From IMG/VR virus record IMGVR_UViG_3300045988_098105, positions 1 through 64,000 of that record: a DNA stretch of 64,000 bases; one strand, given 5' to 3'. This DNA comes from a virus. Numbering within the stretch: the stretch's first letter is position 1; each line of letters opens with the position of its first letter. A model generated the notes under the pieces. The model worked only from the letters and a program-made list of their open reading frames with translations, did not search any database and was not told where the DNA came from. The translations under genes were made by a program, and so were the position numbers. This document shows, piece by piece, positions 3,537-48,570 of this stretch.

Positions 3537-5237
3537 TTACGCTGCAATATCAGCTCCAGCATAGAGTTCCCACTTGGTTCCGTTGTAAACGTAAACCTTG
3601 CCCTTCTCGTACTTGGTAGAAGTATCAGAGTCTGTATAGTCGGCAGTCAATGCGAACTTAGCACCCTTGGCTGCTACCTTAGGAAGCTCTGCTACAGAAG
3701 TGATAGTTGTCGTAATTCCAGATACGCCCAAGTGAGTAATGAAAGCAGTAGGACCTACCAAGATAGAGTTGTAGCCACGGAGAGCGATACAATCTGCCTC
3801 GATGTGCATATATCGCTTAGCCTCTCTTGGGTCGTGACCGTCCTTGCTCATGTCGTTGGTCTTATCCTTGCCCTTCTCCTTCACGTAGTGGCGAGCACTC
3901 TTGAAGTCTGCACCAACCATGCAGTCCTCCATGTCCATGAAGTCGAGCGTCTGATCCCAAACGAAGTCAATAGTACCGTAGTTGTCCTTGTAGCGTGTGA
4001 ACGTAATATCAATCTCCTTGTGGGTTGTAAGAACCTCGGTGCGACCCTTAGGAATCTCGATGTTCATCAGTCGCTTGATGGCATTCTTGCCACAGAACAT
4101 AAAGATGTGGTCTGACTCAGCAAAGTCTGTGAACATAGCCATAGAGATAGCTGTCAAATCCTCGTACTTGTAGACGTCACCGATGCCATACTGGGTAGTA
4201 ATCTGATTCAAGACACCTTCGGAGAAGTAAGTATATTCAGCTGCACCATCCTCAGTAAGGGAGTGGATTCGACGCTGAACGCCAAGCCAATAAGAACGCT
4301 CTGCACGCAAGAGGAACTTGCTGAGGCCATCTGCCTTCATGTCTGAAACCTTATGAGGAATCTTCTTTTCAATCTTCTCGAAATCATCGGTGAAGACGAT
4401 TGAGAATGCTTTCTTCTGAAGATAAACCTCCTTAGAACGAGGCTGATAGTTCTCTGTAGGAACTTTCATCTGTGACTCAGACAGAGCGGTAGCACCACAA
4501 AGGAACGTTGTGCCGACAGGGATAGCTGGACACAACATATTCTCCAGATACTCGCAATCTGCACCTTCCTCTACCGCCTTACCATTTACTGCCTGCAAAG
4601 TTACCTCGGTGCGAGTCTCATTCGTACCAGTAACCAAAAGCATCAGGCGGTCTTCTGTCTGGGTGGTTGAACCAATCTTATAACCTGCCACTTTTGGTGC
4701 GAAAACTGTAGAACCCTTATAGAAAGGCTTCAATGAACCAGAGAAATTGGCGCGAGTCAACTTGATCGTTGCACCCTCAGGAATATTGGCAGTAACCTCA
4801 CCATCCAAAGTTTCACCACCAAAGCGAGCATGTTTCTTCTTGTAGCCCTTACAACCAACAGTTGTAGTGAACTTGCGAACAATGGAGAGCATAGGGTTTC
4901 GATAAGGATGGAACTTGGTGACCTCAGTATCCCAGTCTTCCTCTTCGAGTCCACCTTTGTCAATCTGCGTAGCAGAAGCCTGCGTATTGGTCAAGTCCTG
5001 ACCTGCATTGTCACCACCAGGCGCCAATAAATCCTCTTTATCCTCGTCAACAATCTCAGCACCAGCTACCTCTTCCTTTGTAGCAGGACGAGAACCCGGC
5101 TCATCCAGTTCAGGTTCTACCTTGTCAGCCATAGCCAGTACGCCGCCGCCAGTAACCACGGCAAGAAGCATCAGAATCATCTTCATGATGAACTGACCGC
5201 TTGAAAAATAATTTGAAATTTTCTTCATTTTATACAT
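3537..5237 (-). CDS. putative major capsid protein (566 aa)
   Basis: Largest ORF on the capsid side, immediately downstream of a scaffold-like protein and divergent from the portal operon. The call rests on size and position only. No fold-diagnostic motif can be verified by eye. Alternative starts exist at 5228 and further in. Confidence 0.55.
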   Translation of the reverse strand: MYKMKKISNYFSSGQFIMKMILMLLAVVTGGGVLAMADKVEPELDEPGSRPATKEEVAGAEIVDEDKEDLLAPGGDNAGQDLTNTQASATQIDKGGLEEEDWDTEVTKFHPYRNPMLSIVRKFTTTVGCKGYKKKHARFGGETLDGEVTANIPEGATIKLTRANFSGSLKPFYKGSTVFAPKVAGYKIGSTTQTEDRLMLLVTGTNETRTEVTLQAVNGKAVEEGADCEYLENMLCPAIPVGTTFLCGATALSESQMKVPTENYQPRSKEVYLQKKAFSIVFTDDFEKIEKKIPHKVSDMKADGLSKFLLRAERSYWLGVQRRIHSLTEDGAAEYTYFSEGVLNQITTQYGIGDVYKYEDLTAISMAMFTDFAESDHIFMFCGKNAIKRLMNIEIPKGRTEVLTTHKEIDITFTRYKDNYGTIDFVWDQTLDFMDMEDCMVGADFKSARHYVKEKGKDKTNDMSKDGHDPREAKRYMHIEADCIALRGYNSILVGPTAFITHLGVSGITTTITSVAELPKVAAKGAKFALTADYTDSDTSTKYEKGKVYVYNGTKWELYAGADIAA

Positions 5238-6189: not shown

Positions 6190-8220
6190 ATGTATAAGAA
6201 AATGGTAAAGGCAAGAATACTGACACTTAGCAAAGTGATGCCTCAACATAAGTATGACTCGGTTAAGGCTCGCAAGCGAAGACAAGAACACGGCAAGGAC
6301 GAGGAGTTACTCAGCCGATGCAGAAATGCTTGGAATAACCTGAGCGGTGTGCGAGAAACGAGGGCGAGAACGATGCGCTACTGCATGGGCGACCAATGGA
6401 GCGACACCATCAGAGTATACCATCATGGTTACTGGGAGGAAATGACGGAGCGCACCTATATGGAGAAGCGCAACCAGACACCTATGAGCAACAACATCAT
6501 GGTGAGCATACTGGAATCTATTGCCGGTCTTTATGCCAAGCAGGGAACAGAACCGGTATGCTTTGCCAGAGACAGCGACTCCCGACAACTGAGCGACATG
6601 ATGAGTGCCACGATGCAATGCAACTGGCAGACAACGTACATGCAAGATGTGCTGAACCACGCTATTAAAGACTACCTGATGGGCGGTCAGATGTTTGTCA
6701 GAGAGAGTTGGGAGGCGAAGGAGCTTGAAATGCCCGACTCATGGACAGATGCGATGGAACCCGACCACATGTTTTTTGAATGCGGCAGCGACCCTCGGCA
6801 CAACGACGTGAGTCTTATCGGAGTGCTGCATGACGTGAGCCGAGAAGACTTGTATCAGAAATTTGCCAAAAAGGAATATGGGCTTACAGAAGATGATCTG
6901 AATGCTATCTTTGATATTTATCCTTCGGACGATAACAGCTACGGCTATGAGTTTAACGAAGAGAAGGCGTTGGAGAATCTCAGTTTTGACCATAGCAACA
7001 AGGGAAGACATTACTCTAGAGTGATTGAGGTGTGGACCACGGAAACCAAACCAATGCTGCAATGCTTTGACCCTATTGCTCAAAATGTAAATGATGCTTA
7101 TTTTAGGGTAGATCGTAATGATACGGCTATGATACAAAAGCTGATAGATTTAAACAATAGGCGTAAAGAGCAGTATGACGAGGCTGGTGTGCCGGAGGAA
7201 GATAGGGCGTATATCACCAGCGAAGATACTTCCAGTAAGTACTGGTATTATACCTACATGGCTCCAGACGGAACTATCCTCTGCCAGGGCGAAACTCCAT
7301 ACGACTATAAGAGCCATCCTTTCACGATGAAACTCTATCCGTATATCAACGGAGAGATTCATCCATTCCTTGCCAACATCATAGACCAACAGCGATACAT
7401 CAACCGACTGATTGTGATGAACGACATGGCTATCAGGAGCAGTTTCAAGGGATTCAAGATGATTCCTACAAATGTGCTTAACGGCAGGACACCAGAACAG
7501 TTTATGGAAGAGGCGGTAGAGTATGACGGATGGATATTCTACAAGCCATCGGTGAAGACACCGAATGTAAAGCCAGAAATTATTACATCGAATGCCGTGA
7601 ACATCGGTACGAATGAACTCTTGCAGATAGAGCTGAACCTGATTAGAGAGGTTACCAACGTGAGCGGTGCTTTGCAGGGTAAGACCCCATCGGCAGGAAC
7701 TTCGGCAGCCAGATATGCACAGGAAAGTCAGAATGCAACCACGTCTCTGTATACCATCCTTGCCGACATGGACGTGTTCACGGAGAAGCTGGCAACCAAG
7801 AAGTGCATGACTATACAGCAGTATTACGAAGACGGAAGAAGGGTTTACGACCGGAACTTCAATACGGTTTACAAGTACGACCGCCTTTCGGCAAGAGATA
7901 TTCACTTCAAGATCAGCATCAAGAATGCAGCAGCTACGGCAGCCTTCAACACGATGCAAAACGATACGCTTGACAAGCTTCTTGATATGGGCGGTATCAA
8001 CATCATCCAGTATCTACAGAACCTCAACGCACCATTTGCAGACAAGTTGCTTGCCAGCGTACAGGAGCAGCAGGCTCAGCTTGAACAGATGTATCAGCAG
8101 CAACAGGCAATGGCTATGCAGCAAGGCGGTGGTCAGGTAGAAAACGGAATTGTGCAGGGTGCAGACCAGAATGCGGTAGCACAGGCACAGAGTGCATTAG
8201 GATATAACAGAGCAGCATAA
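6190..8220 (+). CDS. putative portal protein (676 aa)
   Basis: First large gene of the operon that also contains the terminase. The size is right and it has a Gln-rich C-terminal tail (EQQAQLEQMYQQQQAMAMQQGGGQ). ATG 6202 is an equally good start, because it gives the same 27-nt box-to-ATG distance as the other late operons. Confidence 0.6.
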   Translation: MYKKMVKARILTLSKVMPQHKYDSVKARKRRQEHGKDEELLSRCRNAWNNLSGVRETRARTMRYCMGDQWSDTIRVYHHGYWEEMTERTYMEKRNQTPMSNNIMVSILESIAGLYAKQGTEPVCFARDSDSRQLSDMMSATMQCNWQTTYMQDVLNHAIKDYLMGGQMFVRESWEAKELEMPDSWTDAMEPDHMFFECGSDPRHNDVSLIGVLHDVSREDLYQKFAKKEYGLTEDDLNAIFDIYPSDDNSYGYEFNEEKALENLSFDHSNKGRHYSRVIEVWTTETKPMLQCFDPIAQNVNDAYFRVDRNDTAMIQKLIDLNNRRKEQYDEAGVPEEDRAYITSEDTSSKYWYYTYMAPDGTILCQGETPYDYKSHPFTMKLYPYINGEIHPFLANIIDQQRYINRLIVMNDMAIRSSFKGFKMIPTNVLNGRTPEQFMEEAVEYDGWIFYKPSVKTPNVKPEIITSNAVNIGTNELLQIELNLIREVTNVSGALQGKTPSAGTSAARYAQESQNATTSLYTILADMDVFTEKLATKKCMTIQQYYEDGRRVYDRNFNTVYKYDRLSARDIHFKISIKNAAATAAFNTMQNDTLDKLLDMGGINIIQYLQNLNAPFADKLLASVQEQQAQLEQMYQQQQAMAMQQGGGQVENGIVQGADQNAVAQAQSALGYNRAA

Positions 8221-10144: not shown

Positions 10145-10558
10145 ATGGAAGATTTTGAAATGGATGGATTTAAGTCTGTAAGGGAGATACAGAAAGAGAA
10201 GAAGGAGAAGGTAAAGAAACTTCTCCCTGCAAGGAAGAGTGCCCAAAAGGAATATATACGTGACTGGCTAGCAAGGAGCCAAGAGCAGTTTGAGGATTGT
10301 ATGAACCAACTGGCAGAGTATGATCCTAAGACATACGTCACCATCTACAAAGACCTTACCAAGCACATGATACCAAAGCAGACAGAAGTAAGCGTTACCC
10401 ACGGAATAGATGCAGACTTCAAGCAGCTTATGGCACTCGGTATGACTACCGTAGAGGATGAAGACGAGGCAGACGTACTGGATATAAGCAAAGCACCCGA
10501 GATACAGGATGCAGATTTTGAGGAACTAAACGATTTGACGGATGGCTCTAGTAACTGA
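10145..10558 (+). CDS. hypothetical protein, possible small terminase subunit (137 aa)
   Basis: Basic N-terminus and acidic C-terminus, overlapping the TerL start by 17 nt. The function is guessed from position only. Confidence 0.4.
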   Translation: MEDFEMDGFKSVREIQKEKKEKVKKLLPARKSAQKEYIRDWLARSQEQFEDCMNQLAEYDPKTYVTIYKDLTKHMIPKQTEVSVTHGIDADFKQLMALGMTTVEDEDEADVLDISKAPEIQDADFEELNDLTDGSSN

Positions 10559-12659
10559 ACAGGAAATAGATAATCTCGTAGCGGAAAATCAGAAGCGATA
10601 CGATGAGGTTTATGGCACCTACGACCCTATGACGGGCGAAGGTTGCTATAACTTTGAGCATCGTGTGAAGATAGAGCTATCCGATTTCTTCATTCCTAAG
10701 ATGTGGGTTCCGAAGAAGACTGCCAAATCTGTTCTGTTCAGAGGTCTGAGAAAGATGGGTAGCCTGAAAGACTACATCAACTATGTGTTGCACCAGAAGG
10801 ATGATGCCCAGCATTTCCAGATGCTTACCTTTGCCATCTGTAGAGTGAGGTTCATGGAAGACCCCGAGTTTGCCCTATACGTGACCGATAAGATTGAGGA
10901 CAAGAAGACCGGTAAGATGATTCCTTTCAAGCTGAACTATCCTCAGAGAAAGCTACTGAAAATTATGGAAGACCTGCGGAATGCCCACAAACCGGTGTTC
11001 GTGGTTATTCTGAAGGCACGTCAGTGGGGCGGCTCTACCCTATCACAGCTTTATATCAAATGGATTCAGGACTATAGGCGCGATGGTTGGAATGCTATTG
11101 TGCTTGCCCAACAGAAGAATACCGCCAAGAAGATTAAGGCCATGTACCGAAAAGCTTTGGAGCGGCAACCGGGGTGGACCGTGGGGCATCAGGGCGCAAA
11201 ACTCCAGTTCTCGCCATACGAAAATTCTCCAGACGACTTCCAAGTAACGGATGGAGTGAAGGCAATCAGACGAAGTACGCTGACCGTAGCATCCTTCGAG
11301 AACTTCGATTCGGTGCGTGGTAGTAACTTCCACTGCGCCCACTATTCGGAGGTGGCCTATTGGAAGAAGACGCCAGAGCATGATCCTGAGGGTGTGATTT
11401 CTTCTATATCCGGTGGTATCGACCCATTGGAAGACAACGTGGAGATATTCGAGAGTACCGGTAGAGGTAATTCTGGCTTCTTCTACGACAAGTGCCAGTT
11501 GGCAATGGACCCAAAGAATAATGATGCTTATTCGTTCCTCTTTATTCCTTGTTTCTTCATCGAAAAGGATATGACTCCTGTAGAGAACAGAAGAGCATTT
11601 GCCAAGTGGCTTTTGCAGAACAGAGACCGAAGCACCTGTCCGAAGGGCTATCGTGAGACCGGAAAGTTCTTCTGGCGAATGTGGCAGAAGGGTGCTTGCT
11701 TTGAGGCGATAGAATGGTACAGAAACTACAGAAACAAGTTTACCACCCATGCGGCATGTGCTACCGAGGCTCCTATTGATGAGGAAGATGCGTTCAGAAA
11801 CTCTGGCAGGCTGGTATTCAATCCTTATTCTATAGACGACATGCAGGCTTTGTATAAGCAAGATCCTAAGTTTACTGCCGACATCGTGGTGAACATCAGC
11901 GTGAAGGATGATAACACCATTCCGAACTCGAAGGTGAAGCTGAGAGACGATGGCGAGGGAGACTTGAAGATTTGGGCTGTGCCAAACTGCCTGCAAGTGG
12001 AGAACAGATATTTGGTGAGCGTGGATATTGGCGGTAAGAGTACGACATCGGACTATACCGTTATGACCGTGATAGACCGATTCGGTATGATTCCTACCGT
12101 GAAGGGCAAGCCAAAGGTGGTAGCGAGATACAGGGGACATGTCAGGCATGATAAGCTGGCATGGATGGCTGCTGCCCTAGCCCATTATTATGATGATGCG
12201 CTGCTGGTGATAGAGAGTAATACTGCCGACCGAGAGAAGAACAATAACACGGAGGGTGATCACTTTCTGACCATTCTGCAGGAGATTGCCGACTACTACG
12301 ATAATCTGTATCAGAGAACGAGCAGTTCGGAGAATGTGGAAGATAACGTACTGGCGAAGTATGGTTTCCAAACCAACAAGCTGACGAAGCAGCAGGTGAT
12401 TGATAACTTGGAAGAGTTTATTGATGATAATCTGTATGAGGAGCCAGACAAGGAAATGTATCATGAGTTGCGCATCTATGAGCGACATGATGATGGCAGT
12501 TTGGGTAACATCGTTGGTAACGGAAACCATGATGATGTGGTAATGAGTACCGGCATCGGTCTCTTTGTGAGTCTTACGGACATGGAGAAGCCTAGCTGGA
12601 AGAAAGCGGAAAGAAGAAGCCGTGGTGGCGATGGTGTTCATACGGCGGCGAAAATTTAA
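10542..12659 (+). CDS. terL: terminase large subunit
   Basis: ATPase Walker A-like VVILKARQWGGSTLS. The nuclease half carries SVDIGGKSTTSDYTVMTVIDR and GNGNHDDVVMSTGIGL, typical of the TerL RNaseH-fold nuclease. 705 aa. Confidence 0.85.
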   Translation: MALVTEQEIDNLVAENQKRYDEVYGTYDPMTGEGCYNFEHRVKIELSDFFIPKMWVPKKTAKSVLFRGLRKMGSLKDYINYVLHQKDDAQHFQMLTFAICRVRFMEDPEFALYVTDKIEDKKTGKMIPFKLNYPQRKLLKIMEDLRNAHKPVFVVILKARQWGGSTLSQLYIKWIQDYRRDGWNAIVLAQQKNTAKKIKAMYRKALERQPGWTVGHQGAKLQFSPYENSPDDFQVTDGVKAIRRSTLTVASFENFDSVRGSNFHCAHYSEVAYWKKTPEHDPEGVISSISGGIDPLEDNVEIFESTGRGNSGFFYDKCQLAMDPKNNDAYSFLFIPCFFIEKDMTPVENRRAFAKWLLQNRDRSTCPKGYRETGKFFWRMWQKGACFEAIEWYRNYRNKFTTHAACATEAPIDEEDAFRNSGRLVFNPYSIDDMQALYKQDPKFTADIVVNISVKDDNTIPNSKVKLRDDGEGDLKIWAVPNCLQVENRYLVSVDIGGKSTTSDYTVMTVIDRFGMIPTVKGKPKVVARYRGHVRHDKLAWMAAALAHYYDDALLVIESNTADREKNNNTEGDHFLTILQEIADYYDNLYQRTSSSENVEDNVLAKYGFQTNKLTKQQVIDNLEEFIDDNLYEEPDKEMYHELRIYERHDDGSLGNIVGNGNHDDVVMSTGIGLFVSLTDMEKPSWKKAERRSRGGDGVHTAAKI

Positions 12660-15472: not shown

Positions 15473-15504
15473 AAGGCGACTGCTCATCACGAGTGTCCGC
15501 CTTT
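15473..15504. terminator. imperfect hairpin between convergent genes
   Basis: AAGGCGACTGCTC-ATCAC-GAGTGTCCGCCTTT, an imperfect long stem with A/T runs on both sides. It lies between the 917-aa gene (+) and the rhomboid gene (-). Confidence 0.4.
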
Positions 15505-15557: not shown

Positions 15558-16040
15558 TTATCTGATTTTGATATTATTTATGCAATACGCTACGATGTAG
15601 CCTAATACGAAGCACCAAAGATGCAGAAGTCCGTTGACATTCGGCACGGCCATGGTGCAAATAATGAATGGCATCGCTTTCTTTAATGCCTCTTTCCATC
15701 GCCCTGTCCTACCCCACATCAAACCAAAAGATGAGAACAGGAAACCGGAAAGCCCCATTGTAGGCTGACTAACATACATGGGCAGCAGACTAGCGACATA
15801 GGCAACAGCCAGAGAAGTGACTGGTTTCATATCGTTCTTTATCTGCCAAAGCACCAGAAGGTTTACGGCAAGATGAAAGCCGTTGACATGGAAGAAGCTA
15901 TACAGGATATGATTCTGCCAAGGACAACCGGGATAGAAACCGACGTGCCAAGTACACAGAACGAGGCAGATGATGCTAAGCACCAGCTTTGTTCGAAAGT
16001 TTCTTCTTACGAAGGTCCATTTCTCTGTAATTTTTTCCAT
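15558..16040 (-). CDS. rhomboid-family intramembrane serine protease (160 aa)
   Basis: Start placed at ATG 16040 (MEKITEKW). There are six hydrophobic segments. HLAVN matches the HxxxN motif of TM2, MGLSGFLFSSFG matches the catalytic GxSG of TM4, and LLHLWCFVLGYIV supplies the catalytic His of TM6. Compare E. coli GlpG. Confidence 0.75.
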   Translation of the reverse strand: MEKITEKWTFVRRNFRTKLVLSIICLVLCTWHVGFYPGCPWQNHILYSFFHVNGFHLAVNLLVLWQIKNDMKPVTSLAVAYVASLLPMYVSQPTMGLSGFLFSSFGLMWGRTGRWKEALKKAMPFIICTMAVPNVNGLLHLWCFVLGYIVAYCINNIKIR

Positions 16041-16431
16041 ACTTCTTATAGTAAGCGAAAATAAACTTGAGATTACTTGGCTGGATAAAGAACTCGGGAG
16101 CAGGCTCAGAAACAAGGAACTGGCAGATAAACCATAAAGATTTGCCTACGAACTCCTTTCGCTGCGTCATTTCGTTCATCCTGTTGAACAGCGTATAGTA
16201 TAACTTCTGCCGAATCGGCTTCATACTATCCACCTTAGAGAAGTCGCCGACTGCCATTCTGCGGAGAATATCCCAAGCTCTTTTGGGAGAAACGTAGTAT
16301 CTCGGAGCAGGAGAATGGACCACCTTTTCCCAAGCCTCCTGTTGGGAATGGCAATTAGGAGCTATCTCCCGATACGCCTTCATCAGATCATCCCTCTGTC
16401 TGTCAATCAATTCGTAATTTGCTCTTGCCAT
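15976..16431 (-). CDS. hypothetical protein (151 aa), co-oriented with and overlapping the rhomboid gene
   Basis: Track ORF with its own -7 box upstream. It overlaps the rhomboid start by 65 nt. Confidence 0.55.
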   Translation of the reverse strand: MARANYELIDRQRDDLMKAYREIAPNCHSQQEAWEKVVHSPAPRYYVSPKRAWDILRRMAVGDFSKVDSMKPIRQKLYYTLFNRMNEMTQRKEFVGKSLWFICQFLVSEPAPEFFIQPSNLKFIFAYYKKYGKNYREMDLRKKKLSNKAGA

Positions 16432-16454
16432 ATAAATGCTGCATTAAGATGCTG

Positions 16455-16462
16455 CAAATATA
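16455..16462 (-). promoter_or_regulatory. -7 box TATATTTG (Bacteroidota type) for the rhomboid cassette
   Basis: The + strand reads CAAATATA, so the reverse complement is TATATTTG, 24 nt upstream of ATG 16431. Confidence 0.4.
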
Positions 16463-16632
16463 CATATTATTTAGAATATGACCAAATAAGTGCATAAAGA
16501 TTTAAATAAGTTTAATATTAGGCTGGCTTTCATGGCATTACGAAAGAAAAAGCTTAATTTTGCAACAAAATGAGATGTAAATCTCAGAAACAGTTAGCAA
16601 AATGTAAAACCGAACCATAAAATCGTAACAAA

Positions 16633-16803
16633 ATGAGAACAAAACAGGAATCGCCTCTCTCGAAAGAGGAGGAAGCCTTAGTAATGGAAGGCTTATTGAG
16701 TAGGAAGATTTGGAGGTTCTATGAACTTCTATCAAAGTGGGCACCCATACCATTGATGTTAGGTCACTGGTACGGCGTATGGGACTATGGGCACTATCCC
16801 TAG
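16633..16803 (+). CDS. small hypothetical ORF (56 aa)
   Basis: ATG 16633 to TAG 16801-16803, found by hand because it is below the track cutoff. TAATTTTG box at 16555..16562. Confidence 0.25.
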   Translation: MRTKQESPLSKEEEALVMEGLLSRKIWRFYELLSKWAPIPLMLGHWYGVWDYGHYP

Positions 16804-17119
16804 ACCAACAGTTGTAGATACCAATCTCAACGGGAACTGCATCATCTGGATTTATGTACTGGCATACATTTATATGCCACTGACCATGATACCGGTAAGT
16901 TTCTTCTTCAGATACTGCTGGATTTTCCGTATTCCGTTCTTTTATTTTTTCGGTATCAACGCTATCAGACTATACTATCGGCACTGGCTCATCACTCCCG
17001 AGCAGTTGGAGATGCACCATGTGTTTATCATATTCACTTTAATGCTTTACGCTTATGGATTTATCAAAATCGCTCTATCGAATAGCAGAATCTGCCTTTG
17101 GGATGCTAAGAAACGATGA
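16787..17119 (+). CDS. hypothetical aromatic-rich membrane protein (110 aa)
   Basis: Track ORF with about 3 hydrophobic segments rich in F/Y/W/I. It is the only sizeable ORF in an otherwise empty 600-nt stretch. Confidence 0.3.
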   Translation: MGTIPRPTVVDTNLNGNCIIWIYVLAYIYMPLTMIPVSFFFRYCWIFRIPFFYFFGINAIRLYYRHWLITPEQLEMHHVFIIFTLMLYAYGFIKIALSNSRICLWDAKKR

Positions 17120-17584: not shown

Positions 17585-18028
17585 ATGGCAGAGATAGTAC
17601 ATACATTTTTACAAGAGCACCTGTACAGATCGGCATTGGTTATTGCCATCTGCATGGGTGCTCTTATCATTTCTATGGGCGTGGACCTATTCTTCGGAAT
17701 CAAAAAAGCAAAGGAGAACGGACTGGCTACGACAAGTACAGGATTCAAGAAGACTTGCGACAAGGCGAGGAAATACTTCTCTCCCTTCATGGTAACGGTC
17801 TGCATAGACCTGATAGCCTGTACGGTTCTCCCCTTCCCTGTCTTCTCTATGATATGGGCAGGATATTGCGTGTTCTGTGAATTTGTAAGCGTAAGAGAGA
17901 AGAGCTGGCAGAAGGCTGAGATACGGAAGCAGGAGAAGACGGTAAGCATTCTTCTGGAGAACAAAGAAGACTTGGCTAGGGCTTTTGCTGAGATTATGAA
18001 GGAGCAGGGAAAGGAGGAGAAGAAATGA
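17585..18028 (+). CDS. holin-like membrane protein (147 aa)
   Basis: Three hydrophobic segments followed by a charged tail (KEQGKEEKK). It lies immediately upstream of, and overlaps by 4 nt, the endolysin gene. Confidence 0.65.
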   Translation: MAEIVHTFLQEHLYRSALVIAICMGALIISMGVDLFFGIKKAKENGLATTSTGFKKTCDKARKYFSPFMVTVCIDLIACTVLPFPVFSMIWAGYCVFCEFVSVREKSWQKAEIRKQEKTVSILLENKEDLARAFAEIMKEQGKEEKK

Positions 18029-18468
18029 GACTGATTAAGAGAATTTTTGTTCATTGCAGTGCCTCTTCTCAGAAATGGGGTGTGAAGGAACTTTGGGATG
18101 AGTTTAAGCGCAAAGGCTGGAACAACCCCGGCTACCATTACGTGATTACTGCTGATGGTGGGATTCACCAGATGCTGCCGGTAGAAATGGTTAGCAACGG
18201 CGTGAAGGGATATAATGCTACGGCTATCAATGTAGCTTACGTTGGCGGCATCAACAAGAAGGGAAAGGCGGTAGACAACAGAACTGAGGAGCAAAAGAAA
18301 TCGCTTATCACTCTGCTCACTCAGCTGAAGAAGAAATATCCGGATGCTGAAATCTTAGGGCACAGGGATATTTCGCCCGACAAGAACCATAATGGCGTGG
18401 TGGATGCTTGGGAGAGAATCAAGGAGTGTCCTTGCTTTGACGCTAAAGTTGAATACAAAGAGATATAG
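18025..18468 (+). CDS. N-acetylmuramoyl-L-alanine amidase endolysin (Amidase_2 / T7-lysozyme-like)
   Basis: IFVHCSAS, GYHYVITADG, GYNATAINVAYVGG, ILGHRD and KECPCFD match the T7 lysozyme/PGRP amidase pattern. Confidence 0.85.
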   Translation: MRLIKRIFVHCSASSQKWGVKELWDEFKRKGWNNPGYHYVITADGGIHQMLPVEMVSNGVKGYNATAINVAYVGGINKKGKAVDNRTEEQKKSLITLLTQLKKKYPDAEILGHRDISPDKNHNGVVDAWERIKECPCFDAKVEYKEI

Positions 18469-18471
18469 CTT

Positions 18472-18912
18472 ATGAAATGGTATGACATAAGGTTTTGGAA
18501 ATGGGCTTGCATCGGGCTGGTGATTGTGGCTATCCTATTGGCATTTACTGGATGCAAGACGAAGGAGTATATCAATGTTCCTTCTGTTAGAACTGAATAC
18601 GTATGCAGAACTGATACTTTTGCTAAGTTGGATAGTATCTACATGAAGGATTCGGTGTATGTTTTTCAGAAAGGTGATACGGTTTTCCATAACAAGGTGG
18701 TTTATCGGGACCGGTATCATAATATATATAAGGTGAAGACGGACACGATCATCAAGAGGGATTCTGTCGCCGTGCCTTATCCTATAGAGCGACAACTGAC
18801 GAAGAACGAGCAAAGGCTGATGTCGCTGGGCAGATGCTATATCGCCTTTCTATTCATACTGGCGGTTTGCGCGATAGGGTTTACTCTCTGGTACAGAAAC
18901 AAAAAGTGCTAG
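18472..18912 (+). CDS. unimolecular-spanin candidate (lipoprotein signal plus C-terminal TM)
   Basis: N-terminal signal with lipobox-like LLAFTGC and a C-terminal hydrophobic helix CYIAFLFILAVCAIGFTLWY. It sits directly after the endolysin. Confidence 0.5.
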   Translation: MKWYDIRFWKWACIGLVIVAILLAFTGCKTKEYINVPSVRTEYVCRTDTFAKLDSIYMKDSVYVFQKGDTVFHNKVVYRDRYHNIYKVKTDTIIKRDSVAVPYPIERQLTKNEQRLMSLGRCYIAFLFILAVCAIGFTLWYRNKKC

Positions 18913-20031: not shown

Positions 20032-21051
20032 TTATAGCTTGATTTTCTCATTGATAGATATTTCTTTCTTGTCTAAGCCAGAGACCTTGATAAACTCCTC
20101 TAAGGTGAGGTCGCAATATTCGTCTATCCAGTCGGCTATATAATATAGGTTGCGTGAACCATTAATCATACCAAAAAGAATTGGGTCTGACTTCTTACGT
20201 CTGATTCTCTCCTCTTCCTCCTTCGTCAGCTTGTATGATTTCAGGTCTGGGTCGTAGTATAGGACACAATAATTGTCGAATACAAGAACAGAGTCTGCCT
20301 TTGTTTTCTTCTCATAGACTTCATCTGGAATGTTATGTGTAAAGTTCTTGATGTAATCAAGTCTCACTCCCTTTTCTGTCTTCTTAACGAAAGATACAAG
20401 CTGTTCCTCGGAAATCTTGTAATTAAACCCCTCTGCCTGAAGTATGCTCTCATACTTGTTGTTGAAGATTTGGGCAGAGAGTTGGTCGGCAAGGGCGGTC
20501 TGTCCCATATCGTTGGCTCTTTTAAGGGCTATCATATATGGCTTAATACGTTCTACGTAGTTCTTAGCACTCTCCTTAGAGGTTAGCTTTACCTGCTCGA
20601 AAAACTTGATAATATCTAGTTCATAAACAGTCTCTTCTTTCTTCTCCCGCTTCTCGTTGGTGAAGACTCTGATTAACTTCTTGATGATGTCAGGTTCCTT
20701 TTTCTTACTTTCTCTTGATGAAACGCTGTCACCTATAGGGGTAAGCATATTTTTGAATTTATCGGAATCGTTATAGACTCTGTCGGCAAGAGACTTACCA
20801 ATATAGATATTGAAGTCTTTCTTATCTAGATTGATGAAATCTAGAATTGATATTTGCTGGCGGTTGTCGTTGGCTGTTGGTGAAAATGGTTCTAAAGCCT
20901 CGCCTAAGGAACTACCACTTGCTTTTTTAGAAAGAGAATCCTTGTTGTCTTCTGTGATTTTGCTCCACTTAGGGAGATTTCTGTCAATCAGAAAATTCTC
21001 AGTAAAAATTCTGAGATAGCTTTCGCTACGGTCTAAAATATTACTTTTCAT
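20032..21051 (-). CDS. hypothetical protein (339 aa)
   Basis: Track ORF, Lys/Glu-rich. No motif recognised. Confidence 0.6.
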   Translation of the reverse strand: MKSNILDRSESYLRIFTENFLIDRNLPKWSKITEDNKDSLSKKASGSSLGEALEPFSPTANDNRQQISILDFINLDKKDFNIYIGKSLADRVYNDSDKFKNMLTPIGDSVSSRESKKKEPDIIKKLIRVFTNEKREKKEETVYELDIIKFFEQVKLTSKESAKNYVERIKPYMIALKRANDMGQTALADQLSAQIFNNKYESILQAEGFNYKISEEQLVSFVKKTEKGVRLDYIKNFTHNIPDEVYEKKTKADSVLVFDNYCVLYYDPDLKSYKLTKEEEERIRRKKSDPILFGMINGSRNLYYIADWIDEYCDLTLEEFIKVSGLDKKEISINEKIKL

Positions 21052-32544: not shown

Positions 32545-33678
32545 TTACATCTTGCCTTCAAGGGCATCGAAAGCAGATTGTACGTCCTTATTTAATGTAC
32601 GTGCGTATCTAGTAGTCTGACGCAATGTAGTGTGTCCAAGCACCCTTGCCACGATGTTAATAGGCATTCCCTTCGACAGGAATAAGGTTGCCGCAGTCGC
32701 TCTACCCATGTGGGTATGCAGTCTGTCAACTCCGACCATCTGCCCGATCGCCTTCAAATAATCATTATACCTTTGATTCGACATCTTAGGCAGCTTGAAA
32801 TCATACTTCTGTAGTATCTCCAGGGCAGGTTTGAGAAGTTGGAAAACGAAATCTGTATCTGTTTTCGTTCTCTTTGCGTGATAGAACATTTTTCCTCCTA
32901 TCTCCTCGCAGTTGCCATAGTTGAACGATGCAAGGTCAGAATATGCAAGTCCGGTGTAGCATTGGAAGAGGAACAAATCTCTTGCATGGAGAATATGAGG
33001 TGTTGAGAGTTTCAGTTTCTTGATGGCAGCAAACTGCTCTTCTGTGACACAATCAACATACTGCTTTTCCCCCTTGCCAATATGAAACGGAAGAAACTTA
33101 TAAGGATTCTGCTCAATAAGTCCGTCTATCATCGCATCATTGATGAACAACTTGAGATACTTGTGATAGTCGTAGATTGTGCATTGAGCCTTATCCTGTC
33201 TGTGTAGATACTCATCCATCGCGCGCACCTTCGACACATTGCAGTCTTGGAACGATTTTATCTTTCCCCATGTTTTTAGGAATTTGATAAAGACATCATA
33301 GCGTTTCTTGGTATGCTCGCACACCTTGCGCTCATTTCGTCTTCTCTCGCAGTACTCGATGAAAGAAGTTCCTTCGTCTTCCCCGTTCATTAAGGAAATA
33401 ACGGCATTCAAATCATAGTTTCCTTCTTTCACCAACTTCTCAATGACCTCATGCGCTCTAGAAGTGTATGCAGTCAATAAGTTGTTGAGTTCATCTGCAT
33501 CCTTGCGCTTGATTATCTTCTTTGTGGTATCAGACCATTGATTTGTAGTCACCTTGATACCGGTAGAATAATACTTGCGCGTACCCTTCGTACTAAAGCA
33601 CAATTCGATAGAAACTTCCTTCTGAGAGGTCCCACGTTTCTGGCGATCGTGAAAAATACTTAAATTAATTTTTGCCAT
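32545..33678 (-). CDS. int: tyrosine site-specific integrase (Bacteroidota phage/ICE type)
   Basis: Start at ATG 33678 (MAKINLSIFHDRQ). Catalytic pattern HAKRTKTD ... HMGRATAAT ... LGHTTLRQTTRYA (R..HxxR..H..Y). Confidence 0.9.
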   Translation of the reverse strand: MAKINLSIFHDRQKRGTSQKEVSIELCFSTKGTRKYYSTGIKVTTNQWSDTTKKIIKRKDADELNNLLTAYTSRAHEVIEKLVKEGNYDLNAVISLMNGEDEGTSFIEYCERRRNERKVCEHTKKRYDVFIKFLKTWGKIKSFQDCNVSKVRAMDEYLHRQDKAQCTIYDYHKYLKLFINDAMIDGLIEQNPYKFLPFHIGKGEKQYVDCVTEEQFAAIKKLKLSTPHILHARDLFLFQCYTGLAYSDLASFNYGNCEEIGGKMFYHAKRTKTDTDFVFQLLKPALEILQKYDFKLPKMSNQRYNDYLKAIGQMVGVDRLHTHMGRATAATLFLSKGMPINIVARVLGHTTLRQTTRYARTLNKDVQSAFDALEGKM

Positions 33679-34266
33679 TTTGGTAACATAAATTTTGAAG
33701 GTTGGTATCATTTTTGTAACACTCACCTTCGTTTAACATTTTTCCAAATTTGGCTAAATCCCTCTAAATTAGAGTTTTACGGACATTATGTGTTTAAACT
33801 GGTTTAAAACGAGTTTAAGAAATCAATATTTATGACATAACACTTTTAAAAACTAAAAGCAGCTAACATAAATATCTGATATTCAGTACTTTATATTAGC
33901 TGCTTTAAACAAATTTTTCTTACTAAATGTAGCATTTTTATGCTTAAAAAGTGATTCCGTTGGGGTCACAACCAATTTCTCACAAAACTGTCTATATCAG
34001 CCACTTATCTTTCGTGTGCAAAGATAGTGATAACATTTTTATAACACAAATTTTTAATTACTTTTTAACTATATTTTGCAAAAGTTGAAATTTGGTGGTT
34101 TCAAATACTTTTCTTACTTTTGCACTCGTCAATACGGATTTTCACCTCTATCTTGTTGATACAACATTTGTGAAACTTCAATACTTTCAATAGGTATTAC
34201 AATATAGGGGATTGATTAAACCGATAGAAGAGGTGCGGTTTTTTCTTTCCCCAATTTTTGTTTGCT

Positions 34267-44555: not shown

Positions 44556-45141
44556 TTCCCTAACTAGGAAAAAATATTTCTCCAACTAGGAAAACCAAAA
44601 CCGCCTAAATCATATTCTAAAAGCCTTAATCCTAGATGAGCACATTATCCGGCACAAAACCATGAAATCTACGAAAAACCCACAAAATCGGCTCTAATCT
44701 GCTTGCAAATGGCTCTTAAACGGCTCAAAACTCACGAATTTGGGAGAAATCCCGACCAACTGCCCGAAAATCGCAAAAATCGGCAGAAATGGGCGGTTTT
44801 AGCGTTGATTATGGGTGAAAACAATTCAAGAAGGCTGAATACGGCTAGTTAAAGTTTGCTAACGAACTCCTTGCATGCGTGCGTACCTATTAATGCAAAA
44901 CCCCTTTTTTGTTTGCAAAGAATCTTCTTTTATGAAATAAGAACTTTCTTTACATTATTGCTTTATTTATCCTCGGGAGTGATTGAAACTAACTTGCTTA
45001 TAATTAACCACTTGTCTTTTCTTTACAATAATCACGTTTTCTTACAAAATTGGTATTCTAGAGGGCGAAATGGGAGGAGGAAAAGGGGTGAGTTGCGCCC
45101 CGAGAAAGAAATTGGTGGGATTTTGGGCGATTTTGAACGAG

Positions 45142-45183
45142 GTTGGAACATGGCAAAACCGAACTTCAAATATTATATATTTG
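45142..45183 (+). promoter_or_regulatory. late-promoter candidate for the cargo/giant-ORF operon
   Basis: GTTGGAACATGGCAAA at 45142..45157, an 18-nt spacer, then TATATTTG at 45176..45183. ATG 45211 lies 27 nt further on. Confidence 0.6.
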
Positions 45184-45210
45184 CCCTCGAAACATCAAAT
45201 AATTGCAATT

Positions 45211-45975
45211 ATGACGGAAATATTATCAAAAATCCCAAAGCATTTGACCTCTTGCCCTGTACTCACGGACAAAAAGGAGTGGATATTGGGTGCTGCTGCC
45301 TTGGCTCTTGGCGTTGGCTCTTCTCTCTTCGGTGCTAACAAGGCTAAGAAGGCAGCTAGAAGGGCACAAGCGGAGAACACGTACAGAACGAACGCTGAGA
45401 AGGCTTGGTACGACAAGAACTACAACACGGACTACCTTGACACAAAAGCAGGTCAGAACCTCATGAGGAGGGCGAAGGAAGTACAGGACGAGTACGTCCG
45501 CAAGGCTGATGGTGCTGCTGCCGTTGGCGGTGGAACTGCTGCAAGTGTGGCAATGGCGAAGGAGGCAGCTAACAAGGCTATGGGCGACACGATAGCCAAC
45601 GTAGCGGCACAGGACACGGCTCGCAAGCAACATGTGGAGGATGCTCACCTTCAGAACACTCAGCAGTTGTCTAGAGAGCGTCAGCAAATCGAGCAGCAGA
45701 AGGCGCAGAACACTAGCGATGCGGCTCAAAATGCGTCAAATGCTATGTTCAATTTCGGTGTGAACCAATTGGGGTCAGAACTCGAAAGTGCTAAGGTGGT
45801 GAAAACCAACACTTTAGACTCAAACGGAAAGCCAATTGATAACACAATTGTAACACAACAAGACAAAACCGCTCATTCTGCTGCCACAGACCACTTGGCT
45901 GAGAGCATGATGTCTCCCGAGGAGAAGAACCAATACCGCTTGAAGAAGGCAGTTGGCTTGTCGGGGCTTGGGTAG
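45211..45975 (+). CDS. hypothetical virion-internal-like protein with one TM helix and Gln/Ala-rich region (254 aa)
   Basis: Track ORF 45070..45975 trimmed to ATG 45211 because the promoter lies inside the upstream part. WILGAAALALGVGSSLFGA is a hydrophobic helix. Confidence 0.55.
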   Translation: MTEILSKIPKHLTSCPVLTDKKEWILGAAALALGVGSSLFGANKAKKAARRAQAENTYRTNAEKAWYDKNYNTDYLDTKAGQNLMRRAKEVQDEYVRKADGAAAVGGGTAASVAMAKEAANKAMGDTIANVAAQDTARKQHVEDAHLQNTQQLSRERQQIEQQKAQNTSDAAQNASNAMFNFGVNQLGSELESAKVVKTNTLDSNGKPIDNTIVTQQDKTAHSAATDHLAESMMSPEEKNQYRLKKAVGLSGLG

Positions 45976-48553: not shown

Positions 48554-48570
48554 ACATTAATATATAATAT

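Follow-up and report, generated by a model that had tools for sequence, protein, structure and literature searches.

The window analyzed here, a 64,000-nt stretch of DNA (positions 1 to 64,000 of IMG/VR virus record IMGVR_UViG_3300045988_098105), contains a pair of minus-strand genes encoding proteins of 160 and 151 aa. The flanking genes are all located on the plus strand, with the 705-aa and 917-aa genes ending by position 15437 and the lysis-side genes starting at position 16633. The features of the locus and its surroundings are:

10542..12659, plus strand: gene for a 705-aa probable large terminase (phrog_24361 terminase, E 5e-8; Walker-A-like KARQWGGST)
15473..15504, minus strand: intrinsic-terminator-like hairpin with U-run where the rhomboid and 917-aa genes converge, conserved in relatives
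15558..16040, minus strand: predicted mini-rhomboid intramembrane serine protease gene, 160 aa, six transmembrane (TM) segments, ATG at 16040 and stop at 15558-15560
15976..16040, minus strand: 65-nt overlap of the 151-aa and rhomboid genes, an overlap being kept in 96 of 96 codirectional loci
15976..16431, minus strand: gene for a conserved, soluble all-alpha protein of 151 aa (phrog_27246), directly upstream of the rhomboid gene (ORF list, PHROG, AF2)
16455..16486, minus strand: Bacteroidetes-type promoter with -33 TTTG (16486-16483), a 20-nt spacer and -7 TATATTTG (16462-16455), conserved in position
16633-17119, lysis side: 4-TM protein
17585-18028, lysis side: holin-like protein
18472-18912, lysis side: unimolecular-spanin-like protein with a C-terminal TM segment
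32545-33726, strand not stated: tyrosine integrase, which marks the phage as temperate

This layout had been outlined in a first-pass annotation of the same DNA and is confirmed. The 160-aa six-helix protein carries the motifs HLAVN (H56..N60), GLSG (G96-S98-G99) and LLHLWCFVLG (H140..G147), the 151-aa ORF overlaps its gene by 65 nt (15976-16040), both genes run against their two flanks, and a promoter box (16455-16462) and a hairpin (15473-15504) of their own are both present and conserved in relatives. The integrase likewise agrees with the temperate lifestyle that had been assumed. The window phage belongs to a clade of temperate Bacteroidales phages (Segatella/Bacteroides) with a P22-like portal, an SU10-like capsid protein and giant polyvalent proteins; the Segatella host assignment derives from MAG binning, in which one ‘Bacilli’ bin is probably mis-binned. 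The 705-aa protein is called a terminase from a weak PHROG match, the Walker-A-like motif and a GenBank note (‘Terminase_6C’ by structure), and it matched neither Pfam families nor PDB sequences. The capsid protein also gave no match among PDB sequences.

Both ORFs are real genes under purifying selection: compared with close relatives, dN/dS is 0.011 in the 151-aa gene and 0.15 in the rhomboid. The loci contribute 72 distinct, intact rhomboid sequences. Chance ORFs or motifs were considered and are ruled out by this selection and by the invariant catalytic residues.

The 160-aa protein is very probably a rhomboid, as judged from profiles, predicted structure and residue conservation. A search with PF01694 had been suggested as a check in the first-pass annotation, and matches are found with relatives and family profiles, but the window protein alone scores 18.4 bits (E 0.0027) against a Pfam gathering cut-off of 22.6, so that the rhomboid assignment rests on family-level and structural evidence. 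PF01694 is matched by 40 of the 46 close relatives at E ≤ 0.01 (best E 1.5e-8), and the family of relatives comprises at least 784 sequence clusters. When compared with the PDB, the family profile (A1) matches GlpG (E 0.003) in an alignment that pairs both the H..H...N and the GLSG motif, while a wider profile (A3) aligns with the GlpG core at an hhalign probability of 91.6 (E 8e-7). In the latter alignment, H51, H56, N60, G96, S98, H140 and G147 correspond to GlpG H145, H150, N154, G199, S201, H254 and G261, respectively. The AF2 model (pLDDT 89, pTM 0.83) comprises six TM helices and an L1 helix, and a Foldseek search with this model against the PDB gave GlpG at ranks 1-34 and iRhom1 at ranks 35-36, all with a probability of 1.00, the next match having E > 1. 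The predicted catalytic positions are:

15861..15890, minus strand: TM2 motif H51-x-N53-x-x-H56-x-x-x-N60, equivalent to GlpG H145/H150/N154 in the oxyanion-hole region, invariant or nearly so in the alignments
15747..15749, minus strand: Ser98 codon (TCC) in G96-L-S-G99, predicted nucleophile equivalent to GlpG S201, invariant in A1 and A3
15621..15623, minus strand: His140 codon (CAT), predicted general base on TM6 equivalent to GlpG H254 (hhalign), invariant in A1 and A3

In an alignment of 46 sequences with 27% identity, S98, H140, G96 and H56 are invariant and G147 and N60 nearly so; the invariant positions are those of the GlpG catalytic set only. Family profiles, fold and invariant residues thus bear out the intact Ser-His dyad that had been proposed. 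TM6 also carries the packing motif H140...C143...G147. The WR motif of L1, which is common in rhomboids and not catalytic, is absent: GlpG W136-R137 align to Q42-N43 in columns that are not conserved in A3, and W41, one residue off this position, is kept in the window's subgroup only. The protein is therefore similar to GlpG (E. coli/H. influenzae; MEROPS S54; PDB 2ic8, 2nr9) in its six-TM core (TM-score ~0.6), the TM4 GxSG serine, the TM6 histidine with a glycine at +7, the TM2 H..H...N motif and the predicted periplasm-facing active site. It differs from GlpG in sequence (~19% identity), in size (160 versus 276 aa), in lacking both the cytoplasmic N-domain and the WR motif, in an L1 that is ~10 residues shorter, and in being phage-encoded and coupled to a separate soluble protein. 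Rhombosortase (TIGR03902), which is alike only as a small six-TM rhomboid of similar size, was rejected (E 0.3, 11 bits against a cut-off of 84).

The helices of the AF2 model leave 15 lysines and arginines in the N-tail, L2, L4 and C-tail and none in L1, L3 and L5. Under the positive-inside rule, a placement of Ser98 and His140 in the same periplasmic leaflet is supported by this charge pattern, which speaks against the refuting topology named in the first-pass annotation, with Ser and His in different leaflets.

The 151-aa protein has a confident AF2 model (pLDDT 90), yet it matches no PDB entry in sequence or fold; it has no Pfam or NCBIfam match either, and its only PHROG match is phrog_27246, annotated as ‘unknown’; a small terminase or a regulator would be conceivable identities. 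Its gene is more widely conserved among phages than the rhomboid gene. The overlap of the two genes measures 65 nt at 69 of the 96 codirectional loci; the others have 29 nt (13 loci), 35 nt (11 loci), 40 nt (two loci) and 4 nt (one locus). Such overlaps suggest translational coupling or co-expression.

The -7 element TATATTTG lies 23 nt before the ATG of the 151-aa gene, and the two elements fit the consensus of Bacteroides promoters. TAnnTTTG is found 76 times in the window against 48 expected (~0.12 per 200 nt per strand), and a single occurrence in the 200-nt spacer is not significant alone. The position of TTTG-N~20-TAnnTTTG is retained in all clades although the flanking sequence diverges. 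The same, host-type promoter precedes the portal and lysis genes. At the other end of the pair, the hairpin consists of an 8-bp GC-rich stem followed by U5, is conserved in four of the related clades examined and could act in both directions; the automatic terminator scan missed it because its loop exceeds 8 nt.

Relatives are encoded on 333 IMG/VR contigs, and the rhomboid is present with the 151-aa gene in every relative examined, down to ~30% identity. A 192-kb contig also carries a relative. Nine further lineages with 27-40% identity (L016, L019, L103, L104, L112, L113, BKO1-TP3, BS-TP4, and BF1-TP2) encode the rhomboid along with a ~700-aa terminase-like gene; the 151-aa gene was confirmed beside the rhomboid in eight of these nine, the case of BS-TP4 being based on tblastn and synteny. 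Lineage L105 has the 151-aa gene and the rhomboid only, and L015 has the 151-aa gene with no rhomboid within 7.6 kb of sequence. An apparent absence in L018 was discarded, as the expected site is a run of N (scaffold gap). In most lineages, the pair is located between the scaffold/capsid operon and the terminase-like gene: homologues of the 705-aa gene adjoin the rhomboid in L016, L019, L020, L103, L104, L112, L113, and BF1-TP2, and in BKO1-TP3, BS-TP4, BF1-TP2, L103, L104, and L112 the pair and the scaffold/capsid operon diverge from a common control region. In the window's subgroup, the pair has shifted from the capsid/terminase junction to a site beside the lysis genes, so that synteny indicates no single partner. 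A scan of genome contigs yielded four MAG contigs only, with no clean example of a prophage in a chromosome among them.

Neither blastn of the region nor tblastn of the window rhomboid (at 1e-3) gave a match in 50,697 phage records. Cultured homologues were reached only via the 151-aa protein and then confirmed by profile. They are BF1-TP2 gp59, BKO1-TP3 gp50, and BS-TP4 gp8 (PQ571263, PQ571269, and PQ571277, respectively) of three cultured Bacteroides phages, and belong to the same family with ~31% identity (hhalign probability 98.8, E 7.6e-17; hmmsearch 5e-17). These phages have an upstream gene of the 151-aa family with a 40-43-nt overlap, and they share portal, terminase-like, capsid, scaffold and 917-aa homologues with the window phage. 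Their pair runs in the same direction as the terminase-like gene, which it immediately precedes, and diverges from scaffold/capsid, whereas the window pair is inverted and lies between the 917-aa gene and the lysis genes. The window phage and BKO1-TP3 have only 11 proteins in common, including the portal, terminase-like, capsid, scaffold, 151-aa and rhomboid proteins. In INPHARED, this capsid type occurs in three phages, and the rhomboid is present in each of them. The cultured-phage proteins are annotated as ‘rhomboid family intramembrane serine protease’ or ‘rhomboid domain-containing protein’, or mislabelled ‘glycoside hydrolase’; the paper describing the phages makes no mention of a rhomboid (Gut Microbes 2025, PMC12694917).

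From this conservation, the pair appears with good confidence to be a vertically inherited core module of the phage clade and not a moron. The ‘two-gene moron’ of the first-pass annotation is correct as to the pair's own promoter and terminator. It fails in that the pair is not sporadic, has no atypical GC content (0.42-0.43 versus 0.36-0.47 in the flanks) and uses the promoter type of the portal and lysis genes.

The explanation that we favor, with a probability of roughly 0.55, is that the core module supplies an active rhomboid protease that works during virion production, our best guess being that it clips a membrane-inserted phage protein. Transcription of the pair would start at the host-sigma-type promoter and stop at the hairpin, and the 151-aa protein would be co-expressed, probably through translational coupling, with a predicted catalytically competent, minimal six-helix rhomboid intramembrane serine protease. 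The latter would reside in the host inner membrane with both termini in the cytoplasm and its Ser98-His140 dyad opening to the periplasmic leaflet, and would act in the productive cycle by releasing or inactivating its substrate. A phage protein as substrate is a tentative proposal, with chances somewhat short of even; candidates are the N-terminal hydrophobic segment of the capsid protein and the Gly-zipper protein heading the giant-protein operon. The host-type promoter, which is compatible with expression in lysogens, was counted against the favored explanation.

The capsid candidate leads to a more specific form of this idea, in which the rhomboid would be a morphogenetic protease: a capsid propeptide would anchor the protein in the membrane, assembly would take place at the inner membrane, cleavage would release the product, and the 151-aa protein would serve as a cytoplasmic adaptor. 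The major capsid protein has a hydrophobic, signal- or TM-like N-terminus and a 50-60-aa linker in eight of the eight rhomboid-carrying lineages examined. This N-terminus was counted in favor, along with the shared control region and the fact that the scan of head-module ORFs revealed no prohead protease of a conventional kind. The N-terminal segment has a charge of +3 before and -4 after it, which is an N-in pattern; it predicts an orientation that is wrong for a classical rhomboid substrate, and N-in insertion would export the capsid protein. This charge pattern was counted against the idea, as was the lack of a rhomboid-less phage of this capsid type for contrast, and we consider it distinctly unlikely. 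A model for such an action exists in Providencia stuartii AarA, described as cutting a short N-terminal piece from TatA, a protein anchored by an N-terminal TM segment with its bulk in the cytoplasm (PMC3712462). AarA is a larger cellular rhomboid, no TatA-like protein emerged as a substrate for the window rhomboid, and the N-tail of TatA is unlike the basic N-tail of the phage capsid protein. If true, the morphogenetic role would add a novel mode of capsid maturation and give a viral rhomboid its first defined substrate.

Three other explanations have to be weighed against the clipping of a phage protein in virion production. The pair might be a cassette for lysogenic conversion or superinfection exclusion, with a prophage-expressed rhomboid cleaving either a host envelope protein (a receptor, a Tat/Sec component or a signalling protein) or ejection proteins that incoming phages insert into the membrane. 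In favor are the integrase, which marks the phage as temperate, and the orientation of the pair opposite to its neighbors, with a host-type promoter and a terminator of its own. The rhomboid evolves ~14x faster than its partner at non-synonymous sites (dN/dS 0.15 versus 0.011) and has variant TM5/L5 segments among close relatives, as could be expected of a protein that faces the host or competitors. The known targets of bacterial rhomboids include host proteins such as TatA, MgtE and orphan complex subunits, and the rhomboids of Stenotrophomonas phages are listed as morons in the literature. We nevertheless regard such a cassette as rather unlikely, since the pair is clade-wide and not sporadic, lies within the head/packaging region of most lineages and shows no compositional anomaly, and since the rhomboid is kept where almost all accessory genes are replaced; PADLOC defence models matched neither the pair nor its neighbors.

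The position of the window pair beside the lysis genes would instead fit a lysis-timing device, in which cleavage of the holin-like, unimolecular-spanin-like or 4-TM protein triggers or delays lysis, a role close to the processing of a neighboring holin or spanin suggested in the first-pass annotation. In the window's subgroup, the pair and the lysis cassette diverge from a common 200-nt control region, the neighboring proteins have TM segments, and the spanin-like protein would adopt the N-out/C-in orientation preferred by rhomboids if its N-terminal signal- or lipobox-like segment directs export. This adjacency is limited to the window's subgroup: the endolysin region lies 13-15 kb from the rhomboid in BKO1-TP3 and BF1-TP2 (15 kb in BKO1-TP3), and the lysis enzymes are swapped between relatives (amidase versus GH19-like) while the rhomboid is constant, which makes this role quite improbable and speaks against the earlier suggestion. 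Finally, the rhomboid fold might be used without catalysis, as in a pseudoprotease, to thin the membrane as a chaperone or adaptor that serves assembly or the 151-aa protein. The protein resembles the iRhom/Derlin adaptors in being small, in lacking the WR motif and in its close coupling with a soluble protein, and iRhom1 is among the Foldseek matches. The serine, the histidine, the TM2 His/Asn and the GxSG glycine, which pseudoproteases lose, are invariant at 27% identity in the pattern of an active enzyme, and this alternative is very improbable indeed.

A minimal rhomboid of ~160 aa is a conserved core gene in an abundant group of human-gut Bacteroidales phages. Only for a few bacterial rhomboids have substrates and physiological roles been established. 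Its location in the head/packaging region would imply a membrane step in the productive cycle of tailed phages that is missing from current models; should it turn out to serve exclusion or host remodelling, it would represent a new class of phage-host interaction protein all the same. Since three members are cultured with their hosts (BF1-TP2 on B. fragilis BL19, BKO1-TP3 on B. koreensis HM3 and BS-TP4 on B. salyersiae BG8), genetics and virion proteomics can address the function directly, and the small size makes the protein an attractive minimal model for rhomboid mechanism.

We found no functional study of a phage rhomboid in the literature, in line with the first-pass annotation, which knew of no characterised example; annotated phage rhomboids already exist, though, in GenBank, IMG, UniProt and two papers on Stenotrophomonas phages. 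The latter phages, DLP5 (DLP05_096) and DLP3 (gp93), are temperate and also encode a small rhomboid (175-206 aa), considered a putative moron by the authors. These rhomboids are only remotely related to that of the window (hhalign probability 67, E 5e-5) and are found in siphoviruses of a proteobacterium, among sugar-modification genes and not in a head module, so they probably represent an independent acquisition. The best structural matches are the proteins annotated as ‘GlpG-like protein’ of the uncultivated Podoviridae sp. ctzXp5 and ctsfx1 (A0A8S5TE03 and A0A8S5QAB7; TM-scores of 0.75 and 0.67, respectively), which have the same size (155-160 aa) and 19-22% identity to the window rhomboid.

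The window is a tailed-phage genome, and the presence of an integrase indicates that the phage is temperate. The features that bear on the rhomboid locus are the following:

3537-5237, minus strand: SU10-like major capsid protein
5120-5237, minus strand: capsid N-terminus, a signal/TM-like segment MKKISNYFSSGQFIMKMILMLLAVVTGGGVLAMA followed by DKVEPELDEP... and then a long acidic linker
6190-8220: P22-like portal (Pfam, E = 1.7e-22)
15558-16040, minus strand: 160-aa ORF (ATG at 16040, stop at 15558)
15976-16431, minus strand: 151-aa ORF, overlapping the 160-aa ORF by 65 nt
18025-18468: Amidase_2 endolysin
32545-33726: tyrosine integrase with Bacteroidetes-type arm-binding domains

The positions of the two minus-strand ORFs and their overlap are exactly as in the first-pass annotation. 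In line with its statement that the pair is transcribed against both flanking late operons, the genes on either side are on the plus strand: a 705-aa and a 917-aa gene ending at 15437 on the left and, on the right, a cluster from 16633 (membrane protein/DUF7841/holin-like/amidase/spanin-like/HTH). Both ORFs are genes. Protein searches identified 86 relatives for the 160-aa protein and 119 for the 151-aa protein, the dN/dS values against close relatives are 0.15 and 0.011, respectively, and the loci encode 72 distinct sequences of the 160-aa protein, all intact. A scan of IMG/VR found a rhomboid relative encoded on 333 viral contigs, most of them 38-80 kb.

The assignment of the 160-aa protein to the rhomboids is supported by its family profiles, fold matches and invariant residues at the GlpG catalytic positions. 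The Pfam rhomboid profile (PF01694), proposed as a check, is matched at the level of the family, but the window protein alone, with 18.4 bits (E = 0.0027, 131 of 143 profile positions covered), falls just under the Pfam cut-off of 22.6 bits. The profile is matched by 40 of 46 relatives (best E = 1.5e-8), and a search of the PDB with the family profile reaches GlpG (E = 0.003), the H..H...N and GLSG motifs of both being in register. An exhaustive HMM search yielded 784 cluster representatives at E ≤ 1e-3 (293 at E ≤ 1e-10); nearly all of the 150 matches listed are 145-190 aa long. The 46-sequence alignment drawn from these representatives has a mean identity of 27%; apart from the start Met, H51, H56, G96, S98 and H140 are invariant in it, and N53, N60, G106, P133 and G147 nearly so. 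Compared by hhalign with the GlpG core (probability 91.6, E = 8e-7), its profile pairs the conserved phage residues with GlpG H145, H150, N154, G199, S201, H254 and G261. Both this match and the register of its motifs are consistent with the alignment to GlpG from the PDB search.

The confident AlphaFold model of the 160-aa protein (pLDDT 89, pTM 0.83) comprises six TM helices plus a short helix in L1. In a PDB fold search GlpG and iRhom1 account for all of the best 36 matches, and the match after these has E > 1. The 15 Lys/Arg residues are confined to the N- and C-tails and to the loops TM2-3 and TM4-5; L1, L3 and L5 contain none. From this distribution both termini are predicted to be cytoplasmic, with Ser98 and His140 on the same side, where TM4 and TM6 end at the periplasm, an arrangement shared with GlpG. 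The protein is predicted to possess everything needed for an active rhomboid. It differs from canonical rhomboids in having no extramembrane domain, an L1 about 10 residues shorter and no conserved WR motif. Within the close clade (loci L023-L074) the rhomboid is 91-99% identical and the overlapping upstream gene 96-100%. Rhomboid variation clusters in TM5/L5 (FIICTMAVPNVNG versus FILFTMILSNVNG) and, as a second variable part, in the C-terminal tail with its alternative endings, a pattern that may reflect recombination, or adaptation of the substrate gate.

Annotations of phage rhomboids already exist. A 97%-identical protein is named ‘membrane associated rhomboid family serine protease’ in IMG, and BF1-TP2 gp59 and BS-TP4 gp8 are named rhomboids in GenBank. 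The best fold matches to the window rhomboid are UniProt ‘GlpG-like proteins’ of uncultivated podoviruses (TM-scores 0.75 and 0.67). Two papers give a ‘rhomboid membrane protein’ of the Stenotrophomonas phages DLP5 and DLP3 as a putative moron; this protein is only remotely related to the window rhomboid and stands in another genomic context. The paper on the three cultured Bacteroides phages (PMC12694917) never mentions the gene, and we found no functional study of a phage rhomboid in the literature searched. Three points are new: minimal rhomboids are recognised here as a large family; in a clade of gut phages the rhomboid is one of the core genes, located in the morphogenesis region and coupled to a conserved partner; and a hydrophobic capsid N-terminus co-occurs with it. 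In BKO1-TP3 (PQ571269), the GenBank product of the rhomboid homologue gp50 (L020 in our locus set, 6351-6869) is ‘glycoside hydrolase’, a mis-annotation; the record's own secondary note reads ‘Rhomboid domain-containing’. The neighboring gp51 is terminase-like, yet named ‘tail spike protein’.

The pair had been interpreted as a moron, and comparison across loci argues against this. The two genes overlap in 96 of 96 loci in which both are codirectional (by 65, 35, 29, 40 or 4 nt). Searches with the 151-aa protein lead to the cultured temperate Bacteroides phages BKO1-TP3 and BS-TP4, where the gene following the 151-family gene overlaps it by 40 nt and encodes a 172-aa homologue of the window rhomboid (hhalign probability 98.8, E = 7.6e-17); in BF1-TP2 the pair is gp58/gp59. 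In these three phages and the metagenomic lineages L103, L104, L112 and L113, the rhomboid adjoins a ~700-aa homologue of the 705-aa protein, and most have the order 151-family gene, rhomboid, ~700-aa gene, with the portal nearby. Wherever flanking sequence is covered, the scaffold/capsid operon and the pair are transcribed divergently. L016 and L019 have the rhomboid immediately before the ~700-aa gene, with the 151-family gene convergent on it, and L105 has the pair with no terminase-like gene within the 8.8 kb examined. That the ~700-aa protein is the large terminase is probable, as indicated by a PHROG terminase match, a KARQWGGST Walker-A-like motif and a ‘Terminase_6C’ structural note in GenBank; it has no sequence match in Pfam or PDB. 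Only 11 proteins are still recognisably common to the window and BKO1-TP3: the portal, the terminase-like protein, the 917-aa protein, scaffold, capsid, a 263-aa protein, a 301-aa protein, a repressor-like protein, a methylase, the 151-aa protein and the rhomboid. The GC content of the pair (0.42-0.43) is that of its flanks. By these genomic comparisons the rhomboid is a core gene of the phage clade.

The box and the hairpin described for the pair were confirmed. The box TATATTTG lies at 16462-16455, 23 nt ahead of the ATG of the 151-aa gene, with TTTG 20 nt further upstream; together we take them to be the Bacteroides -33/-7 promoter consensus. A single box of this type is not significant alone. 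Of 64 distinct sequences upstream of the 151-aa gene, 62 have the arrangement TTTG-N~20-TAnnTTTG(CA) in this position, including clades with diverged flanking sequence. It says nothing on timing, because boxes of this type also stand before the portal gene, the holin-like gene and the lysis-side operon. The downstream hairpin (15473-15504, followed by U5) is conserved in four related clades among those examined. Between -33 and -7, the spacer (16463-16482, minus strand) carries TTCTA(A/G)AT, a near-palindrome (TCTAGA) kept across diverged clades and a possible operator.

The 151-aa protein is soluble and all-alpha in its predicted model (pLDDT 90). It has no relative in Pfam, NCBIfam, PADLOC or PDB (sequence or fold), its sole family match being PHROG 27246, ‘unknown function’. 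Its very low dN/dS and constant overlap with the rhomboid gene suggest co-expression and perhaps a complex. Its gene is more widely distributed than the rhomboid's, at least one lineage (L015) having it without an adjacent rhomboid. There (435-2632) a 540-aa PAP2-family membrane phosphatase precedes the 151-family gene and a soluble 139-aa protein follows. A second apparent case, L018, was rejected for a scaffold gap at the site. MAG contigs assigned to Segatella copri and Ca. Segatella violae carry relatives, and the distant cultured relatives have Bacteroides hosts.

The rhomboid persists together with head and packaging genes, whereas the accessory gene content changes. For this reason a phage protein produced during the productive cycle is a more likely substrate than a host protein attacked by the prophage-encoded enzyme. 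We give a virion-associated phage protein a probability of roughly 40%. A host or incoming-phage target, serving exclusion or conversion, is unlikely on the same grounds. Lysis control, with the adjoining lysis proteins as candidate substrates, seems less likely still: the position next to lysis genes, noted in the first-pass annotation, is peculiar to the window's subgroup, and the endolysin is 13-15 kb from the rhomboid in BKO1-TP3 and BF1-TP2. A non-catalytic role would be very surprising for a protein with an invariant Ser and His at the catalytic positions. Something else takes the remaining probability.

Two candidate substrates are virion proteins or probably so. The first ~35 residues of the capsid protein comprise a basic tail, ~20 hydrophobic residues, a Gly/Ala/Ser cluster and ..MA|D, and a 50-60-aa acidic or Gly-rich linker connects this segment to the conserved core. 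The layout is shared by 8 of 8 rhomboid-carrying lineages examined, including the three cultured phages, and is unusual for an HK97-fold capsid protein. The segment is possibly a propeptide or membrane anchor; its charges predict N-in, the wrong way round for a classical rhomboid substrate. The best predicted topology for a rhomboid substrate belongs to the 301-aa protein (45070-45975, plus strand), the homologue of BKO1-TP3 gp57 and probably an ejected or internal virion protein. Its Gly-zipper TM segment WILGAAALALGVGSSLFGA, after which the sequence is strongly basic, has the N-out/C-in charge pattern preferred by rhomboids. Rhomboid function is directly testable in the cultured phages.

The 301-aa gene is the first of an operon ending in a giant ORF (at least 5144 codons). 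This plus-strand frame (~48568-64000) continues beyond the window end and for that reason is absent from the ORF list; relatives encode polyvalent proteins of 5,100-6,500 aa with LPD/DarB-like/helicase domains. A 339-aa ORF (20032-21051, minus strand) matches a PHROG transposase family (E = 1e-15), and BF1-TP2 likewise has a transposase inside its structural region. Compared with the related locus L001 (3474-4019), the endolysin is a module swap in an otherwise syntenic lysis cassette, and a GH19-like enzyme takes the place of Amidase_2 in relatives at 59% identity. The 146-aa protein at 18472-18912 (plus strand), with no match in PHROG or Pfam, begins with a signal/lipobox-like segment (LLAFTGC) and has a TM helix at its C-terminus, and in this it resembles a unimolecular spanin. 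The plus-strand region 16633-17119 is homologous to an intact 159-aa four-TM protein (L001, 4929-5408) and is interrupted at 16787-16804 by CCC TAG A, with reading continuing in the +1 frame. The same break occurs in seven independent assemblies of the close clade and represents either a programmed +1 frameshift (CCC-to-CCU slip at the stop codon, RF2-like) or a split gene restarting at ATG 16787.
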